A DNA stretch of 28,980 nucleotides. It comes from Aromatoleum sp. (GTDB lineage: Bacteria > Pseudomonadota > Gammaproteobacteria > Burkholderiales > Casimicrobiaceae). The position numbers and the translations under genes were made by a program. Location: contig JAAFGU010000001.1 of assembly GCA_010365205.1 (NCBI GenBank), positions 12,672 through 41,651 on the forward strand. The letters are read 5' to 3'. Of this stretch, positions 2-22,072 are shown piece by piece (position 1 is the first letter of the stretch; each line of letters opens with the position of its first letter). The notes under the pieces were generated by a model that did not search any database, had not been told where the DNA came from, and saw only the letters and a program-made list of their open reading frames with translations.

Positions 2-1744
2 CTGTCGAGCGAAGACGGTTCGCTGTGGCTCGTCGCCAACGGAGAGATCTACAACTACCGCGCATTGCGCGACGAACTCGCGGCGCTGGGCCACCGGTTC
101 AAGACCGGATCGGATAGCGAGACGATCCTCCATCTCTACGAACAGTACGGCGACGACTGCGTCACCCGCCTCAACGGCATGTACGCGTTCGCGCTCTGGG
201 ACGCGCGCCGCCGGCGGCTTCTCGTCGGTCGCGATCGGCTCGGGGTCAAGCCGATCTACCTGTGGAACGACGGCAGGCGGCTGGTATTCGCGAGCGAGGC
301 GAAGGCGATTCTCGCGCTGCCGGGTGTCCGCGCGGAACTCGATCCGGCGGCGCTGTCGTCGTATCTCGCTCTGGGCTATGTGCCGGCGCCGCAGTCGATC
401 TTCCGGGGGATTCGCAAGCTGCCGCCCGCGACACTGCTGTCGGCCGAAAACGGACGCGTCAGCGAGAGGCGTTACTGGACGTTGCCGTCCGAGGTCGACC
501 GATCGCGCTCCGAGGATGACTGGGTGGCGCAGATCCGTGCCCGGCTCGAGGAGTCGGTGCGGATGCAGATGGTCAGCGACGTGCCGATTGGCGCCTTCCT
601 CTCAGGCGGCGTCGATTCGAGCGCCGTCGTGGCGTTCATGTCGGCGCACAGCGACCACCCGGTCAAGACCTACGCGATCGGTTTCGGCGGCGGCGAGGCC
701 GAGGCGTTCTACAACGAACTGCCCTTTGCCCGGCAGGTCGCGCAGCAGTTTGGCACCGAGCACCACGAGATCCTCGTGCGTCCGGACGTGGTGTCGCTGC
801 TGCCGCGGCTGCTGTGGCACATGGACGAGCCGATCGCCGACACCGCGTTCATCACGACGTACTTGGTGTCGCAGTTCGCGCGGAAGGACGTCACCGTGAT
901 CCTGTCGGGCGTGGGCGGCGACGAGCTCTTCGGCGGTTACCGGCGCTACCTCGGCAGTCACTATCAGGCGTACTTCGACCGGCTGCCGAACGGCCTGCGG
1001 CGCGCGGCATCGGCTCTGGGTGAAAAGCTGCCGAGCGACCGGCATTCGCCGCTCTTCAACGCGCTGCGGTTGGCCAAGGGATTCCTGTCGACGGCAGGAT
1101 TGCCGTTCGAGGAGCGCTACCGGTCCTACGTGCAGGTCTTTTCCGACGACGTGGCGGACGCGCTCCTGCGCGCGCCGCGCAACCGCGATCGCGACCCGCT
1201 CGCCGACGCCTTCCGCGCGGCCACGGGTAGCGACGAGATCAACCGGATATTCGCGGTGGACGCGCAGACTCAGTTGCCGGACGACCTTCTGCTGCTCACC
1301 GACAAGATGAGCATGGCGGTTTCCCTCGAATGCCGCGTGCCGCTGCTCGACCATGAGCTGGTCGAGCTTGCCGCGCGGATGCCGCACGAGGTGAAAATTC
1401 GCGGCGGCCGCCTCAAGCACGCGATGAAGGCGGCATTGAAGGACGTGCTGCCCCCCAACATCCTCCGGCGCAAGAAGCGCGGCTTCGGCACGCCGATGGG
1501 GGCGTGGCTCAAGGGCGAGCTTGCGCCGATGGTGCGGGATCTGCTGTCCGCAGACGCGGTCGCCGCGCGCGGGCTCTTCCGCCACTCCGAGGTCGCGGCG
1601 CTGATCGCCGCGCACGACGCCAACCGAATCGACGGCACCGATCGTCTGCTGACGCTGCTCAATCTCGAGATCTGGGCCCGGATCTACCTCGACCGGCGCT
1701 CGCCGGCCGATGTCGCCGACGAACTGAAGGCCGTTGCGTCGTGA
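2..1744 (+). CDS. asnB: Asparagine synthase (glutamine-hydrolysing)-like amidotransferase, EPS/exosortase-A-associated type; 5' end lies outside the window
   Basis: Frame is open from base 2 (LSSEDGSLWLVANGEIYNYR). Motifs NGEIYN, DSE, GMYAFA, RDRLGVKP, PP-loop FLSGGVDS, LSGVGGDELFGGY, SLECRVPLLD, RRKKRGFGTP. Confidence 0.92.
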   Translation: MSSEDGSLWLVANGEIYNYRALRDELAALGHRFKTGSDSETILHLYEQYGDDCVTRLNGMYAFALWDARRRRLLVGRDRLGVKPIYLWNDGRRLVFASEAKAILALPGVRAELDPAALSSYLALGYVPAPQSIFRGIRKLPPATLLSAENGRVSERRYWTLPSEVDRSRSEDDWVAQIRARLEESVRMQMVSDVPIGAFLSGGVDSSAVVAFMSAHSDHPVKTYAIGFGGGEAEAFYNELPFARQVAQQFGTEHHEILVRPDVVSLLPRLLWHMDEPIADTAFITTYLVSQFARKDVTVILSGVGGDELFGGYRRYLGSHYQAYFDRLPNGLRRAASALGEKLPSDRHSPLFNALRLAKGFLSTAGLPFEERYRSYVQVFSDDVADALLRAPRNRDRDPLADAFRAATGSDEINRIFAVDAQTQLPDDLLLLTDKMSMAVSLECRVPLLDHELVELAARMPHEVKIRGGRLKHAMKAALKDVLPPNILRRKKRGFGTPMGAWLKGELAPMVRDLLSADAVAARGLFRHSEVAALIAAHDANRIDGTDRLLTLLNLEIWARIYLDRRSPADVADELKAVAS

Positions 1745-2961
1745 GGGTGCTCTACGTCTGCCACCGGTTCCCATTTCCGCCGAAACGCGGCGGCAAGATC
1801 CGCCCTTTCAACATGATCCGGCATCTCGCGCGCGAGCACGAGGTGCACGTGGCGTCGATCGTGCGTTCCGCGGCGGAGGCGGCGGAAGGCGAGGGCCTGG
1901 CGAAGTACTGCAAGGGGTACGCGATGGGCCGGGTGCGCGACCCCGTCCAGGCGCTGCGCATGGTCGCGCGATTGCCGACGCCGACGCCGTCGTCGATGGG
2001 ATTCTTCTACTCGCCGGGCCTCGCGCGCGAGGTCCGGCAGACGCTCGCCCGCGAGCGCTTCGACCTGATCTTTGTCCATTGTTCCTCGGTGGCGCAGTAC
2101 GTCGAGGATGTCGCGGGGATTCCCAAAATCCTCGACTTCGGCGACATGGATTCGCAGAAGTGGCTCGATTACGCGCGGTACAAGCCGTTCCCGCTGTCGC
2201 TGGGCTACTGGCTCGAAGGCAGGAAGATGGAGCGGGCGGAGAAACGGCTCGCCGGCCGCTTCGACCTGTGCACCGCGACCACCCGCGCCGAATGGGAGAC
2301 GCTCGAGGCGTACCGAACGAGCGCGGACTCCGACTGGTTTCCGAACGGCGTCGACGGCGAGTACTTTGCGCCGACCGACGAGCCCTACGATGCCGACACG
2401 ATCACCTTCGTCGGGCGCATGGATTACTATCCGAACCAGGAGTGCATGTTCGATTTTTGCGCCACGACGCTGCCGCTGTTGCAGGCGAAGCGGCCGGCGG
2501 CGAAGCTGCTGATCGTGGGCGCGGACCCATCGCCGGCCGTTCAGCGGCTGAGCAAGCTTCCGGGGGTCACCGTCACCGGCTCGGTGCCCGACGTCCGGCC
2601 TTACCTGCGCCGGTCCGCGCTGATGGTGGCGCCGCTCAACATCGCGCGCGGCACGCAGAACAAGATCCTCGAGGCGATGGCGATGGGCGTTCCTGTAGTC
2701 ACCAGCCGCGTCGCGGCCGGCGGCGTCGATGCGGAAGCGCCGGAACACTTCCTCGCCGCGTCCACGCCGGCCGAATATGTCGCCGCGATGCTGCGGGTGA
2801 CCGAGGACCCCGTCGAGCGGCGGCGGCTGTCGGCCGCCGGACGGGCGCGCATGCTGGACCGTCACGCCTGGGACAAGTCGATGCAACGCCTGGACGGTAT
2901 CATCGACCGCTGTCTTGCCAACCATTCACGCGCGGGCGCGGGGCGCCCGCAAGTTCGCTAG
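1741..2961 (+). CDS. GT4 glycosyltransferase, PEP-CTERM/exosortase-associated sugar transferase type
   Basis: GTG start overlaps the asnB stop (GTGA). N-terminus MRVLYVCHRFPFPPKRGGKIR, plus DFGDMDSQKW, FVGRMDYYPN and ARGTQNKILEAMAMG, typical of this subfamily. Confidence 0.88.
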   Translation: MRVLYVCHRFPFPPKRGGKIRPFNMIRHLAREHEVHVASIVRSAAEAAEGEGLAKYCKGYAMGRVRDPVQALRMVARLPTPTPSSMGFFYSPGLAREVRQTLARERFDLIFVHCSSVAQYVEDVAGIPKILDFGDMDSQKWLDYARYKPFPLSLGYWLEGRKMERAEKRLAGRFDLCTATTRAEWETLEAYRTSADSDWFPNGVDGEYFAPTDEPYDADTITFVGRMDYYPNQECMFDFCATTLPLLQAKRPAAKLLIVGADPSPAVQRLSKLPGVTVTGSVPDVRPYLRRSALMVAPLNIARGTQNKILEAMAMGVPVVTSRVAAGGVDAEAPEHFLAASTPAEYVAAMLRVTEDPVERRRLSAAGRARMLDRHAWDKSMQRLDGIIDRCLANHSRAGAGRPQVR

Positions 2962-2970
2962 GATCGCATC

Positions 2971-4287
2971 GTGGACATCAGCATCTTCGGTTTGGGCTAC
3001 GTCGGCGCGGTTTCGCTCGCCTGCCTCGCGCGGGACGGGCATCGGGTCGTCGGGGTCGACGTCGATCAAGCGAAGCTCGACCTCATTGCCGCGGGCAAGA
3101 CGCCGGTGGTCGAGGAGGGCATGGTCGATCTCGTGGCCGACGCGGTCGCCAGCGGCCGGGTGTCGGTCACCCGCGACACGCGCGAAGCGGTGATGAACAC
3201 CGAACTCTCGCTCATCTGCGTGGGGACGCCCTCCGCACCCAACGGCAGCCAGGACCAGTCGGCGATGCTGCGTCTAGCCGCCGATCTCGGCACGGCGATG
3301 CGCGACAAGGCGGAGCCGCATTTCTTCGTGTTCCGGTCGACGTTGGTGCCGGGGACGGTCGAGGACGTGCTGCGCCCGCTGATCGAGTCCGCCTCCGGCA
3401 AGCAGGAAGGCAGCGACTTCCACGTCTGCTTTCAGCCGGAGTTCCTGCGCGAGGGATCGTCGATCCGCGACTACGACAAGCCGCCGTTCACCGTCGTGGG
3501 CGCCAACGCCGCGGCGCCGGCGGACAAGCTGCGGCAGCTTTTCGCCCATCTCCCGTGCGAGTTCCACGTGACCTCGGTGCGCTCGGCGGAGATGGTGAAA
3601 TACTGCTGCAACAACTTCCACGCGCTGAAGATCACCTTCGCCAACGAGACCGCGCGCGTCTGCGAGGCGATGGGCGTGGATCCGTTCGAGGTCATGGAGC
3701 TCGTGTGCAAGGACCGGCAGCTCAACATTTCGCCGGCTTATCTCAAGCCCGGGTTCGCGTTCGGCGGATCGTGCCTGCCGAAGGACCTGCGCGCGACGCT
3801 GCACTTTGCGAAGATGCGCGATGTCGACCTGCCCGTCCATGCGCACATTCTGCCGTCCAACCGTGCCCACATCGATCACGCGATCGCCAAGGTGCTGGAG
3901 TCCGGGCGGCGGCGCATAGGCATGATCGGCCTCTCGTTCAAGACTGGGACCGACGACCTGCGCGAGAGCCCGCTGGTGCTTCTCGCCGAGCATTTCATCG
4001 GCAAGGGCCTCGATCTGCTCGTCTACGACCCCGAGGTGCACCTGTCCAACTTGCTCGGCGCGAACCGGCGCTTCATCGAGAAGCACGTGCCGCACATCGG
4101 CACGCTGCTGCGCAGGGAGATGGCGGACGTCATCGCGGAAACGGACCTGCTGGTCGTTGGCCTGAACGACGCGCGTACGCTCGAGGCGCTGCGGAAGCAT
4201 GCGCGCCCCGACCAGGTCGTCGTGGATCTCGTCGGGATCGCGGACCGGAAGGACTTGCGCGCCGAGTACGTAGGGCTGTGCTGGTGA
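2971..4287 (+). CDS. algD: GDP-mannose 6-dehydrogenase-like (UDP-glucose/GDP-mannose dehydrogenase family)
   Basis: Rossmann motif ISIFGLGYVG, ICVGTPS, PEFLREG, catalytic GFAFGGSCLPKD, GLSFKTGTDDLRESP. The N-terminus closely resembles AlgD; the exact nucleotide-sugar substrate is not proven. Confidence 0.8.
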   Translation: MDISIFGLGYVGAVSLACLARDGHRVVGVDVDQAKLDLIAAGKTPVVEEGMVDLVADAVASGRVSVTRDTREAVMNTELSLICVGTPSAPNGSQDQSAMLRLAADLGTAMRDKAEPHFFVFRSTLVPGTVEDVLRPLIESASGKQEGSDFHVCFQPEFLREGSSIRDYDKPPFTVVGANAAAPADKLRQLFAHLPCEFHVTSVRSAEMVKYCCNNFHALKITFANETARVCEAMGVDPFEVMELVCKDRQLNISPAYLKPGFAFGGSCLPKDLRATLHFAKMRDVDLPVHAHILPSNRAHIDHAIAKVLESGRRRIGMIGLSFKTGTDDLRESPLVLLAEHFIGKGLDLLVYDPEVHLSNLLGANRRFIEKHVPHIGTLLRREMADVIAETDLLVVGLNDARTLEALRKHARPDQVVVDLVGIADRKDLRAEYVGLCW

Positions 4288-11935: not shown

Positions 11936-13105
11936 TCAAGCGGTGCGTAGAAAGTACACGGGTTTGTCGAACGCCTGCGCAATCACCACGCCCTTGAGGT
12001 TGGGCACGTATTGCATCCGGCTCATGATCGCCGTGTCGCCGCCGTTCACGCCCGCACCGTAGGCGACTGGAGGAGTGCCCGTCGTGGGCAGTTTCGAAAC
12101 GGCGAACGTCGTCGGATCGATCACGTAAATCTCTTCGAGGTCCGTGAAGTACAGGAACCTGTCGAGCACCGGATCGTGGACGAAGCCTGCGCCGGATGCG
12201 CGACGCAGTGGCAGCCCCGAAGCGGGGGCGTCACGATAGGCGGCCGGACGCTTGGACAGATCGAAGTAGCCGATCTGCGAGTCGCCCATTCCGGGGCGCG
12301 GTCCGATCCGCACCAGTCGACTTCGCAGCGGGTCGACGAGCGCGCACCCGCGGTCGACGTCGACCCATTCGGTATCGGCCAGGATGGCATCCGGTTGCCC
12401 GGTGGCGTTGTTCCAGAGCTGAATTAGGTGCGAGCTGGGGAAATAGACGTCGCCGGTAACGGGATGCTGCGCCACCCAGTTCCCCTCGTATCCGCCGGCC
12501 CTGGCGTACATGCGTCCGTAGTGTTCAGCGGGGTACCAGCGGCCTCCGGACGCCAGAGGGATCGCATCGACCTGCCAGCCCTTGCCCTTGTCCATCGGCC
12601 AAACCGGGCCGCAACCATAGACGATCAACTCGTCGCGCCCCGCGTTGTATTGCGGCGCGTAGTACGAGTGCCGTGACACCGGCGTTCCATCGGGGTTGTA
12701 GAACGCGCTGCTGTTCGATTGATTGGTCCGCACGCCGGAGGCATTTGACGGCTTCACGATGCAGAACCATCGCGGCGCGTCGGTTTCCAGGGCAAGGGCG
12801 CGGACCTCGTTGCCGCCCCAAGTCCGACCGCCACCGCCGAACGACATCAGCATGCTGTCGGACTTGCGAAGGGCACCGCCGCTGAACGTGAAGGTACCCG
12901 TTCGCGGATTCGTGCCGAAGCCAATGTCCCGCCAGTTCCGGTCGGTGAGGCCAGCCGCGACCAGGTCGGCCAGCACCGCCGGGCTGTCGATTTGCCGCGT
13001 ATTCGGAATCGCGACCCATTCGCCGACCTTCCTTCCCTGAAGCCATGCTGGAATCCGTGCGGCCGTTGCCGCGGGAAAGCTGAGCGGGGCAGAGGTGGAC
13101 TTGAT
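11936..13105 (-). CDS. Gene C: hypothetical beta-propeller-like protein, 389 aa if initiated at ATC 13105 (first canonical start is GTG 12976)
   Basis: Frame is open from 13105 to TGA 11936. Upstream of the GTG it reads IKSTSAPLSFPAATAARIPAWLQGRKVGEWVAIPNTRQIDSPA. The body has repeated aromatic/DP blade-like motifs (SFGGGGRTWGGNEV, LVDPLRSRL, VHDPVLDRF, YVIDPTTF, MQYVPNLKG). Start position is uncertain. Confidence 0.72.
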   Translation of the reverse strand: MKSTSAPLSFPAATAARIPAWLQGRKVGEWVAIPNTRQIDSPAVLADLVAAGLTDRNWRDIGFGTNPRTGTFTFSGGALRKSDSMLMSFGGGGRTWGGNEVRALALETDAPRWFCIVKPSNASGVRTNQSNSSAFYNPDGTPVSRHSYYAPQYNAGRDELIVYGCGPVWPMDKGKGWQVDAIPLASGGRWYPAEHYGRMYARAGGYEGNWVAQHPVTGDVYFPSSHLIQLWNNATGQPDAILADTEWVDVDRGCALVDPLRSRLVRIGPRPGMGDSQIGYFDLSKRPAAYRDAPASGLPLRRASGAGFVHDPVLDRFLYFTDLEEIYVIDPTTFAVSKLPTTGTPPVAYGAGVNGGDTAIMSRMQYVPNLKGVVIAQAFDKPVYFLRTA

Positions 13106-13111
13106 TTACGG
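13092..13111. repeat. 20-bp direct repeat, copy 1 (B/C junction)
   Basis: GAGGTGGACTTGATTTACGG versus GAGGTGGGCTTGATTTACGG at 20611-20630 (19/20 identical). Confidence 0.9.
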
Positions 13112-13276
13112 GCCTCCGTGACGGTAGAAGAGCAGGCCGGGGTTCGGCATGCCGATGCCGCCCGCCCAAAGCGACCAGTCGTCGGGCACCCACGGGCATG
13201 GCAACGCCAGCGGTGTTCCGAGGTGGCCGTCGATCATGGCGCAGTCGAACGCCGAACGCGGTGACGTCGATTTCAT
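13106..13276 (-). CDS. Mini-B: 56-aa protein or internally deleted remnant of gene B (absent from the ORF track)
   Basis: MKSTSPRSAFDCAMIDGHLGTPLALPCPWVPDDWSLWAGGIGMPNPGLLFYRHGGP*. The first half matches the N-terminus and the second half the C-terminus of 20625..21728. ATGA overlap with gene A1. Confidence 0.7.
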   Translation of the reverse strand: MKSTSPRSAFDCAMIDGHLGTPLALPCPWVPDDWSLWAGGIGMPNPGLLFYRHGGP

Positions 13277-13620
13277 TGCCCGTCATCCGCATCGATGATG
13301 ATGCCTGCGAGATCGCCGTGGCCGATGCGGGTCAGGATGCCTTCGCGGCTGAGCATCAGCACGCCGGCAATCGGGGCGCTCCGCGCGTTGAGCGAGAACG
13401 TCAACGGGTTGCCGTCCGGATGCGTCACGAATGTGCGCAGGTCGAGCGATGCTCCGATCGCGAGCGCCGCGCCCGAAAAGCCTGCCAACCAGGCGGCCTC
13501 GCGATCGGAGGTGAATGACGACGCGGGTTCCTTCGTATTCTTGGCGCCGACCCCGCACGCCGCCGAAGGGGCGATGAGCGCGCCTGCGCCTGCGATGATG
13601 AAATCACGGCGAGAGGTCAT
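13273..13620 (-). CDS. Gene A1: twin-arginine (Tat) signal protein with Ig/cadherin-like C-terminal domain, 115 aa
   Basis: MTSRRDFII followed by a hydrophobic stretch; GAGGA SD upstream; DLRTFVTHPDGNPLTFSL...EGIL...IIIDADDGQ. Paralog of 21725..22072. Confidence 0.8.
   Translation of the reverse strand: MTSRRDFIIAGAGALIAPSAACGVGAKNTKEPASSFTSDREAAWLAGFSGAALAIGASLDLRTFVTHPDGNPLTFSLNARSAPIAGVLMLSREGILTRIGHGDLAGIIIDADDGQ
13277..13299. repeat. 23-bp perfect direct repeat, copy 1 (A/B junction)
   Basis: TGCCCGTCATCCGCATCGATGAT is identical at 13277-13299 and 21729-21751. Confidence 0.9.
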
Positions 13621-20498: not shown

Positions 20499-20540
20499 CG
20501 CTAAGCCCGGCGCCGACGTGCGCCGGCACTGTACTTAGCG
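20499..20540. terminator. Composite inverted repeat between convergent genes (possible terminator or structured RNA)
   Basis: CGCTAAG-c-CCGGCGC-cgacgt-GCGCCGG-cactgta-CTTAGCG: two perfect 7-bp stems; no U-tract. Confidence 0.35.
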
Positions 20541-20603
20541 CCCGCGCCTCGCGCCAGAGGATCGCCGACATTGCGTAGAAGAGGTAGGCGAGATCAAAAT
20601 ACG

Positions 20604-20624
20604 CGGAGCTGAGGTGGGCTTGAT
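20604..20624 (-). pseudogene. Seven-codon stub of gene C (IKPTSAP)
   Basis: Directly follows the TAA of gene B2 in frame and matches IKSTSAP at 13105-13085. Similarity then ends and the frame stops at 20535-20537. Confidence 0.6.
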
Positions 20625-20630
20625 TTACGG
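20611..20630. repeat. 20-bp direct repeat, copy 2 (B/C junction)
   Basis: 19/20 identical to 13092-13111. Confidence 0.9.
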
Positions 20631-21728
20631 ACGTCGATGACGATAGAAGAGCAGATCGGGATTCGGCACGTCGACGCCGCCTGCCCACATCGACCAGTCG
20701 TTCACCGGATCGTAGACGGCCATTCGCGCTTGAAGCTTCCTGCCGTTGGGGGCATCGACGGCGGCGACGCGCCAGCGGTTTTCCGACGGCTGGTAGACGT
20801 AGAGCCGGCCGTCGTTGAGGTTGAGGTATTCGACGACGCGATGCCGGCTGTTGAACACGATGTGCGTGTGGTTCGCCGCCCGCGGGGTCTCGAGCGGCCC
20901 TGGCGGCGGCGCGCGCTCGGAAAATGCACCGCTGTCCATGTCGATTCGGATGAACAGCGCATCGATCGGGTCGATTGTGTAGACGCAACGGCCCGACAGA
21001 TCGATCGCGACATAGTCCTTCCAGATGCTGGGCTTGCGACCCCTGCTGTTGTCAGGAAGATTGACGGGCACGCGCCACGAGGGCGGCGACGTCGCAATGT
21101 CCAGCACCTGCATTTTCGGTCCCAGCCCGATCCGGCTTATGGTCCTTTTCACCGGATCGAGCCACGAGAACCACGAATCGGTGTAAGCGATGCCTGCGTC
21201 AACGCCCGCCCTCGACCACCGTCGCGGCGGCGGCGCGAACGGGTCGAACCACATCACCTCGTCATGGACGAAGTTCGCGTCGCTGGCACGCGCCGGTGTT
21301 TCGTTGGGTGGATTGTCCGTGGTGATATCCATCACGCCAGGAATCATCCAGAACCGGTGGAGCATGGCATCCCACTGCCAGCCGACGTAATCGGGGTGTT
21401 TGGGCTGCACCGAATTCCCGCCGAATCCGGCGTACGGGTACTCGAGCCGCCAACCCGCGTTCGGGTTCCGGGGATTCGCCATCCGCTCGGCGACGTCAAG
21501 CGACCAGGTTTCCTGGCGGTAGCTGCTGACCCATGGCTGCCCGCCGTAGTCGCCGCCGACGAAATAGATGCGCCCATTGTCCGGACAAAAGGCGCCCGTG
21601 ACATGTTTCATCCCCCCGCCCCACGGAGGCGCGTTCGGGGCGAACCCGCACGGCAGCGCGAGCATGGTTCCGAGTAGACCCTCCGGAGTCTGGCACGCGA
21701 AGGTCAACGGCGTTGAGGTTGCCTTCAC
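20625..21728 (-). CDS. Gene B2: hypothetical beta-propeller/kelch-like protein, 367 aa, no signal peptide
   Basis: GTGA overlap with gene A2. Blade-like motifs GRIYFVGGDYGG, WQWDAMLHRFW, MWFDPF, SWLDPVKR, YTIDPID, AVYDPVND. Both termini are homologous to mini-B. Confidence 0.78.
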   Translation of the reverse strand: MKATSTPLTFACQTPEGLLGTMLALPCGFAPNAPPWGGGMKHVTGAFCPDNGRIYFVGGDYGGQPWVSSYRQETWSLDVAERMANPRNPNAGWRLEYPYAGFGGNSVQPKHPDYVGWQWDAMLHRFWMIPGVMDITTDNPPNETPARASDANFVHDEVMWFDPFAPPPRRWSRAGVDAGIAYTDSWFSWLDPVKRTISRIGLGPKMQVLDIATSPPSWRVPVNLPDNSRGRKPSIWKDYVAIDLSGRCVYTIDPIDALFIRIDMDSGAFSERAPPPGPLETPRAANHTHIVFNSRHRVVEYLNLNDGRLYVYQPSENRWRVAAVDAPNGRKLQARMAVYDPVNDWSMWAGGVDVPNPDLLFYRHRRP

Positions 21729-22072
21729 TGCCCGTCATCCGCATCGATGATCACAGCGGCGATGTCGCAGGTCGCGATTCGGGCCAGGATGCCTTCAGGA
21801 TTGAGCGTAAGTCTGCCGACAGTAGGCGCACCATGCGCGTTGGGCGAAACGGTCAGTCGCTTCCCATCCGGGTGAATCGCGAACACGCGCAGATCGATCG
21901 AGGCCGCCACCGCGATGGCCGCGCCGCAGAGTGCGCGCCACCATACCGGATCGTGACGGAATGCACGCTGTCCCGAAGGTGGCGCCTCGGACGCGGTCGC
22001 GGCCCGGCATACGACCGATGGCGCCGCGAGAACTCCCGCACCCAGGACGATGAGATCGCGGCGAGACATCAT
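21725..22072 (-). CDS. Gene A2: twin-arginine (Tat) signal protein with Ig/cadherin-like C-terminal domain, 115 aa
   Basis: ATG 22072 preceded by GAAGGAG SD; MMSRRDLIV. Ungapped alignment with A1 gives 56/115 identical residues by hand count, ending IIDADDGQ. Confidence 0.8.
   Translation of the reverse strand: MMSRRDLIVLGAGVLAAPSVVCRAATASEAPPSGQRAFRHDPVWWRALCGAAIAVAASIDLRVFAIHPDGKRLTVSPNAHGAPTVGRLTLNPEGILARIATCDIAAVIIDADDGQ
21729..21751. repeat. 23-bp perfect direct repeat, copy 2 (A/B junction)
   Basis: Identical to 13277-13299. Confidence 0.9.

Follow-up and report, generated by a model that had tools for sequence, protein, structure and literature searches.

The 28,980-nt window analysed here, a stretch of contig JAAFGU010000001.1 from an Aromatoleum sp. 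assembly, carries on its minus strand two copies of a gene module built from A, a 115-residue protein with an immunoglobulin (Ig)-like domain, B, a 367-residue propeller, and C, a 389-residue propeller. In the reading that we favour, which we hold to be not quite an even bet on the sequence evidence, A would be a lipid-anchored carrier exported by twin-arginine translocation (Tat), and B and C would dock onto it by donating a strand from a 10-residue N-terminal tag and hitchhike with it out of the cytoplasm. A is truncated within its Ig domain, the tag is conserved and stands in place of the signal peptides of related propellers, and the genes remain syntenic; contact of A with the tag and export of B or C are what we infer.

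A stops before the last strand of its Ig domain

The two copies of A, A1 (13273..13620 including the stop codon; coding 13620..13276, stop 13275-13273) and A2 (21725..22072; coding 22072..21728), share 49% identity in an ungapped alignment. Comparison of A with Pfam and NCBIfam gave no significant match. An exhaustive phmmer search with A retrieved 73 proteins; four are close relatives and some 70 are giants (E-values down to 4e-16), most of which contain 4-16 tandem repeats matching A residues 40-115. The repeats tested from these giants belong to the Pfam families Big_9, Cadherin_4/5 and He_PIG, and the DxDG loop and A.DDG turn are common to A and to Big_9, cadherin-like and He_PIG repeats. 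While residues 40-115 are thus like the Big_9 (PF17963), bacterial cadherin-like or He_PIG repeats of giant surface proteins, A differs from them in being a single domain behind a Tat/lipoprotein signal. In A1 the Big_9/cadherin-like domain (residues ~40-115; 13276..13503) comprises strands A to F only and ends in DADDGQ, and the C-terminal end of A2 is as in A1.

The first-pass annotation, made from the window's letters and open reading frames (ORFs), supposed that A lacks its last Ig strand, and three lines of evidence confirm that A stops just before strand G. First, all five A-family proteins (A1, A2, P0040, P0041 and P0042) stop at the identical D-D-G-x residue, while past the DDG turn 44 homologous repeats go on with GGTxxxxFxVTV, which forms strand G, and a linker, leaving A 12-13 residues short of the repeat unit. 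Second, the terminal domain of P0067, a relative that ends like A, spans positions 1-77 of the 89 positions of the Big_9 profile, positions 78-89 being absent. Third, an AlphaFold model of A1 aligns through its residues 36-115 with residues 1-89 of the 102-residue extracellular cadherin domain 1 (EC1) of cadherin-23, which places residue 115 about 13 residues before the end of EC1. This model was built on a 19-row alignment, has a mean predicted local distance difference test (pLDDT) score of 73 (78-93 across residues 41-115) and contains strands at residues 58-60, 74-77, 88-90, 95-98 and 108-112. Its similarity to cadherin EC domains reached a Foldseek probability of up to 0.99 (E ~0.05) and a VIA Z of 6-7; such a Z is middling alone, yet the modelled fold agrees with the sequence family of A. 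Hence, A is not a complete seven-strand Big_9/cadherin-like domain that includes strand G.

A search for homologs of near-A length returned only A itself, and the A profile found no match among PDB chain sequences or in the genome that holds L008, a locus with B- and C-type genes. P0067 (209 residues) and P0102 (259 residues) have no Tat signal, yet end in a Big_9/He_PIG domain cut at A's turn, and an Atlas viral cluster of 618 members contains 78-residue He_PIG proteins, the size of A's domain; P0067, P0102 and these 78-residue phage proteins may be further strand acceptors. The A1 model also draws residues 2-6, at the start of the signal, as a beta strand (pLDDT ~60), and this modelled strand may be filling the open edge of the sheet.

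A, and neither B nor C, carries a Tat-type signal

A1 begins with M-T-SRRDFI, and its signal region (residues 1-22; 13555..13620) continues with a hydrophobic core that is closed by Cys22 (SAAC). The corresponding motifs are SRRDLI in A2, which likewise has Cys22 (SVVC), SRRKFI in P0040 and SRRNFI in P0041. The pattern [ST]RRxF[IL] with a Cys closing the hydrophobic core was scored in all four members of the five-protein A family that have an intact N-terminus. The twin-arginine motif lies ahead of a moderately hydrophobic core (maximum 12-residue hydropathy of 2.07-2.27), and Cys22 is kept in 4 of 4 full-length members. P0040, which also has a long Pro/Thr linker, and P0041 contain the regular lipoboxes LAAC and LFAC, respectively, which strengthens the earlier hint from Cys22 that A is a lipoprotein. 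From its sequence, A is probably a Tat-exported lipoprotein, and a cofactor-free Ig domain of 90 residues would have no other evident reason to use the Tat pathway. Tabulated hydropathy revealed no signal peptide on B or C, so that the earlier observation that only A bears a twin-arginine signal holds.

The N-terminal tag follows the pattern of the missing strand

B (20625..21728; coding 21728..20628) starts from GTG and opens with the tag (residues 1-10), and C (11936..13105; coding 13105..11939) carries it in its first 10 codons (13076..13105). In both proteins, a short linker rich in Pro, Ala and Thr comes after the tag, MKxTSxxLxF. B and its close homologs (P0009-P0012 and P0113) begin with MK-[AT]-TS-x-x-L-x-F, and C has the same pattern from an ATC codon. 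The C-type gene of L008 starts ATC-AAG and continues with V-TS-TALRF, while P0001 has two extra residues before the tag. When the whole genome was scanned in six frames (6.07 million residues), a relaxed version of the motif opened a long ORF only at these genes. As proposed before, the gene coupled to A starts with an MK-x-TS tag in both copies, within a four-base ATGA stop/start overlap between A1 and the short gene mini-B (13273..13276, the start being at 13276) and within a GTGA overlap between A2 and B. The peptide had also been reported four times in front of otherwise dissimilar proteins. Four sites do exist in the window (13276, 13105, 21728 and 20624), but they form two pairs, because mini-B corresponds to B and the fourth site belongs to a stub of C.

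We then compared the tag with strand G by extending the profile of the 44 repeats by 25 residues and appending residues 1-25 of each cargo protein to the A1 domain, with 2,965 ORF N-termini of this genome as the null set. Appended cargo N-termini lengthened the alignment to the repeat profile through the G-strand positions without any gap and with a gain of 3-7 bits (empirical P = 0.003 for P0009, 0.004 for P0001, 0.01 for B, 0.012 for P0012, 0.036 for both P0010 and P0011, and 0.08 for C). The N-termini of mini-B (P = 0.2), in which the tag is degenerate with S instead of L as residue 8, and of the C stub (P = 0.5) were indistinguishable from chance. This register pairs L8, F10 and residue 12 with the F, V and V positions that face inward in the repeat's G strand. 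The sequences contain both halves of a putative donor-strand pair, an acceptor Ig domain without strand G and a donor N-terminus with alternating hydrophobic residues. The idea that the tag is a docking strand completing A, with the propellers exported on A, is partly supported: strand G is missing, the tag is in register and it replaces signals; the contact itself and the export of the propellers are predictions. Two other assignments within the N-terminus of B were rejected, namely the tag as a lipobox (LTFAC), as the Cys is absent in P0009-P0012, and the hydrophobic stretch of residues 18-29 as a signal core, as these residues align with a mature-domain strand of signal-bearing homologs.

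The shared N-terminus could conversely be no docking element but a relic of gene fission or a translation-start or coupling sequence, with B and C being cytoplasmic polysaccharide enzymes. This explanation would account for a tag that begins at coupled start sites, even at a non-canonical ATC in C, and it draws some support from the lack of a usable answer from complex prediction, in which full-length B and A2 residues 22-115, with an alignment for each, scored 0.29 and 0.30 (mark 0.32) and were not used either way. We nonetheless give it little chance. The copies of the tag differ by synonymous codons (AAA/AAG, ACG/ACC, TCA/TCT, TTG/CTC/CTG and TTC/TTT), indicating that selection acts on the peptide, and the tag is conserved as amino acids that follow the G-strand pattern in register. 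Moreover, in two different families it occupies the very place that signal peptides take in their relatives.

The tag stands where related propellers have signal peptides

This comparative pattern of tag versus signal is, among the sequence data, what points most strongly to docking and hitchhiking. Six B-type and two C-type proteins among the close homologs carry the tag and have no hydrophobic N-terminus. By comparison, eighteen more distant B homologs (~34-41% identity) have general secretory (Sec)-type signals exactly where B has its tag and linker, a pair of B homologs within the same order (in genomes G039 and G093), adjoining an asparagine synthase gene, start with MTSRRRF and thus have their own Tat signal, and the C homolog P0004 from a Casimicrobiaceae assembly has RRRFLK followed by a signal core. 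Since these distant relatives carry Sec or Tat signals, both cargo families are likely extracytoplasmic and both appear to include Tat substrates. The hydropathy table parts the tag-bearing from the signal-bearing class cleanly, and the tag-bearing clade, in which no recognisable signal is left, sits behind a Tat lipoprotein. Only signal-bearing B homologs were found in an order-level sample of 200 other genomes and in a class-level sample of 399 other genomes scored.

Two side observations concern these signal-bearing homologs. In loci L006 and L007 (G093 and G039; ~950-2030, minus strand), the Tat-signal B homolog by the asparagine synthase gene is accompanied by a second Kelch gene, a polysaccharide-locus context of the kind seen here. 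In L014 (G414 C52, 3-1562), a B homolog with a Sec signal shares one stop-free frame with the C-terminal end of the upstream protein, and this end resembles a Gly-rich, hydrophobic and Arg-rich sorting tail of PEP-CTERM-like type.

We propose that the tag would insert in the cytoplasm as the missing strand G of A, that only the completed, folded domain would pass Tat proofreading, and that the folded A-propeller heterodimer would then be taken by the Tat translocase via the twin-arginine signal of A. Lipidated at Cys22, A would anchor the propeller to the membrane near the exopolysaccharide machinery, and the tethered propeller may there trim or modify the polymer. Alternatively, the tag could complete A without hitchhiking, for example if B and C crossed into the periplasm by some different route and docked there on previously exported A. 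Such a scheme shares the structural and sequence evidence for docking, and donor-strand exchange in pili normally takes place outside the cytoplasm, as it does in the haloarchaeal Tat-fimbriae, where each subunit bears a Tat signal of its own and strands are exchanged after export (PMC11821415). We consider it improbable in the present case, as B and C lack a recognisable signal of any kind and this scheme offers no reason why a tiny Ig domain without a cofactor should carry a Tat signal. In addition, A without its G strand should fold poorly and hence be a poor Tat substrate, as can be deduced from Tat quality control (PMC9436932).

The A-B-C module is duplicated, reciprocally decayed and conserved elsewhere

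Locus 1 reads A1, mini-B, C and locus 2 reads A2, B, C stub. Mini-B (13106..13276; coding 13276..13109) encodes 56 residues and is best read as the remnant of an in-frame internal deletion in a B paralog. It consists of the two ends of B, with approximately residues 32-342 (~310 codons) removed in frame; its N-terminus matches the start of B, and the final 25 residues share 68% identity with residues 343-367 of B. The C stub (20535..20624; coding 20624..20538) is a decayed remnant of C that starts with ATC-AAG and comprises 29 codons after the TAA of B. As mini-B is a shrunken B and the fourth peptide belongs to a C stub, the ancestral operon must have been A-B-C; judging from these remnants, this unit was duplicated and underwent reciprocal decay, A1 having kept C and A2 having kept B.

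The same genes are found together in other samples. P0041 (A), P0113 (B-type) and P0003 (C-type) lie on one European Nucleotide Archive (ENA) contig of 6,283 nt, and P0012 (B-type) and P0001 (C-type) on a single 2,683-nt contig, co-location being deduced in both cases from identical contig size, and L008 has B followed by C. A metagenome search with a DNA pattern of the junction yielded 43 loci, none of which encodes relatives of A, B or C, the hits being chance matches.

The junction between A1 and mini-B is no assembly error, because a contig from another study bridges positions 13184-13395 with ~94% identity and no gaps, and a second, independent sediment-metagenome contig covers positions 13046-13285, including all of mini-B, with ~98% identity. 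These contigs also bear on the possibility that A and B are a single protein, a lipoprotein Ig domain fused to a propeller, that has been split by a sequencing frameshift or is joined by programmed -1 frameshifting. A -1 shift from A into B would indeed yield a complete, in-register Ig repeat, and a phage homolog of B is such a fusion (see below). We regard this explanation as very improbable given that both copies of the module keep the overlap at only 49% identity, that contigs from other studies bridge the junction without gaps and that three homologs found in other samples stop at this very residue of A. Furthermore, the sequence GAC-GGG-CAA-TGA offers no X XXY YYZ slippery site, and C has the same tag even though its preceding gene ends in a propeller and not in an Ig domain.

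A separate observation concerns the 3′ ends of A1 and A2, which are identical over ~22-23 bases (13277-13299 and 21729-21751), while the whole genes are only ~62% identical when aligned. Codon bias together with the conserved IDADDG end, or gene conversion, may account for this identity.

Phage relatives share the layout but not A

B matched Pfam Kelch_6 below the cut-off (E = 0.003), and its homologs bear PF01344, PF07646 and PF24681. The Atlas model of C matches Kelch clusters with a template-modelling (TM) score of 0.68-0.78; our own AlphaFold model of C was too poor (mean pLDDT 47) and was not used. A marginal relationship links B and C (hhalign E = 6e-5; Atlas structure matches), and we predict that both are Kelch-like beta-propellers. 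PHROGs contained no match for A, B, C, P0067 or P0102.

Relatives of the propellers were found in three phage loci, L010, L011 and L012, none of which contains an A-like gene. L012 (1-5318) is a viral contig encoding a P22-like portal protein (E = 3e-132), then a phrog_644 protein, an Ig-propeller fusion and a C-type propeller with a strand-like N-terminus. The fusion gene, which lies in a GTGA overlap with the preceding gene, codes for 543 residues in which two Ig-like domains, the first matching He_PIG at the cut-off, are joined directly to a propeller of the B type, which is 39% identical to B over residues 22-364. By position, the tag of B falls where the last strand of the second L012 Ig domain lies. 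A natural fusion resembling A-B, which the first-pass annotation suggested looking for, therefore exists in this phage, though its Ig domains are not detectably homologous to A; none of 69 large A-domain proteins carries a B or C propeller. In L010 (~1350-2900) and L011 (~2848-4179), three consecutive genes open with one shared 17-residue peptide of the pattern M-K/A-T/D-x-T-x-Y/F-x-P-x-x-T-V-x-V-x-D. The third gene codes for a C-type propeller with a linker of collagen-like Gly/Pro/Thr repeats, and one gene follows a collagen-like fibre gene. Carrying short N-terminal docking peptides on varied heads thus seems to be a habit of the propeller family.

These loci are the basis of the main rival to docking on A, according to which the tag docks on a partner other than A. 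B and C would then be fibre- or depolymerase-like proteins of phage origin that assemble on this other partner, or would work in the cytoplasm or following lysis, and A would be an unrelated small lipoprotein of the operon. Structurally, C matches viral clusters best, and the three phage loci combine B- and C-type propellers, N-terminal peptides shared between neighbouring genes and the absence of any A-like gene. Conversely, the A-B-C order and its four-base overlap have been kept in two diverged copies, with synteny on other contigs as well, and the strand missing from A is the very strand that the tag resembles. The B and C homologs outside phages are Sec or Tat substrates, and the genes lie in a Wzx/Wzy polysaccharide cluster instead of a prophage. 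On balance, we consider docking on another partner unlikely, yet more credible than any of the other alternatives.

Proposed docking on A compared with known export and strand-exchange systems

Several observations weigh against docking and hitchhiking on A. The match between tag and G strand is modest (P = 0.01 for B and 0.08 for C), and the P values are not independent, as the tag peptides are related to one another. The whole family amounts to about ten sequences, and profiles of A and of the Big_9 repeats found no significant match in the L012 Ig domains. The Pfam TAT_signal model (PF10518) gave A2 only 12.1 bits against a cut-off of 22.7 and did not match A1, nor did NCBIfam offer a match; short signal-peptide profile models are insensitive. 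The lipoboxes of A1 and A2 deviate from the consensus [LVI][ASTVI][GAS]C, no TatC was found in this 85%-complete assembly of 493 contigs, and the ancestral operon provided one A for two cargoes. Finally, known hitchhikers are cofactor-bearing redox enzymes held together by large interfaces and not by the contact of a single strand.

In the Tat hitchhikers hydrogenase-2 (HybO/HybC) and DmsA/DmsB, the twin-arginine signal is on one subunit. PaoABC is another hitchhiker complex (PMC4273604), and the flavin adenine dinucleotide (FAD)-glucose dehydrogenase of Burkholderia has a signal-bearing small subunit (PMC6719666). The module analysed here is alike in having one signal-bearing subunit with signal-less partners in the operon and a small carrier with a larger, catalytic partner, and among A, B and C the signal is on A alone. 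Unlike these cofactor-dependent redox enzymes with their extensive interfaces, it yielded no cofactor domain, and its proposed interface is a single donated strand completing an Ig domain; the carrier is probably a lipoprotein, a single tag would serve two distinct cargoes, and the export itself is predicted.

An Ig-like acceptor without its C-terminal G strand and a short N-terminal donor with alternating hydrophobic residues are also the elements of donor-strand complementation in chaperone-usher pili, and of TapA/TasA. In contrast to the pili, the module has no polymerisation logic, its acceptor A and its donors B and C are unrelated proteins, and no pilin, chaperone or usher gene occurs among the ORFs of the window. 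Unlike the subunits of Tat-fimbriae, the donors B and C have no signal. Phage receptor-binding proteins share N-terminal anchor modules, and SpyTag/SpyCatcher are engineered split-Ig pairs. As in the former, a portable N-terminal element would join different heads to one anchor, a layout that the phage relatives of B and C show; as in the latter, the last strand of an Ig-like domain has been split off to give a tag and an acceptor. The module differs from both by its chromosomal polysaccharide locus, its membrane-anchored acceptor and its proposed role in export, and a covalent bond is unsupported.

More speculatively than for docking itself, a portable 10-residue strand could here replace a signal peptide, forming with A a natural split-Ig acceptor/tag pair that would license co-export and tethering of folded, cofactor-free cargo. 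We would be equally guarded in extending this split-Ig device, as one related to the N-terminal docking of phage receptor-binding proteins, to a wider use by strand-less Big_9/He_PIG proteins. In the literature searched, we found no account of a split Ig carrier whose partners bear a tag in place of a signal. If correct, this would be the first case of Tat hitchhiking through beta-strand complementation of a split Ig domain instead of a cofactor-enzyme interface, and the first in which two cargo families have a short transferable tag instead of a signal peptide. It would account for the occurrence of signal-less relatives of secreted proteins beside tiny Tat lipoproteins, improve the prediction of localisation (which would at present class B and C as cytoplasmic), provide a natural tag/acceptor pair with which to export folded proteins and link a module of polysaccharide loci to phage fibre docking.

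Locus context and Tat machinery

The window corresponds to a Wzx/Wzy exopolysaccharide cluster, which codes for two asparagine-synthase-like proteins, three GT4 glycosyltransferases, a WbsX glycosyltransferase, a Wzx flippase, a pyruvyl transferase, a heparinase II/III-like protein, a Wzy_C/DUF5935 protein, a methyltransferase and a deacetylase. None of the sequencing runs listed was of RNA. A single gene of the TatA/B family turned up (L009; G000 C483, 114-266), ~110 bases from a contig end. TatC is present in all four same-family genomes and in G201; its gene was probably lost in the fragmented assembly, and Tat export in this organism is plausible from its gene content.

C starts from an ATC codon

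The first 43 codons of C include no ATG, GTG or TTG, though these codons are conserved in homologs, and C opens with an ATC directly after the TAA of mini-B, 7 nt downstream of a GGAGG ribosome-binding site (13113..13117). The same arrangement, with a spacing of 6-7 nt, recurs in both copies within the window (13103-13117 and 20622-20636, right after the TAA) and in L008 (950-972), where the ATC overlaps the TGA of B by one base in another frame. Comparison of these sites supports AUC initiation or re-initiation at C. Readthrough from B into C was rejected, as the frames differ in L008 while ATC-AAG and GGAGG are kept. Because C has no canonical start, it needs the GGAGG and the stop-start junction that the mini-B frame preserves, and the open frame of mini-B may thus have been retained to deliver ribosomes to the ATC start of C.

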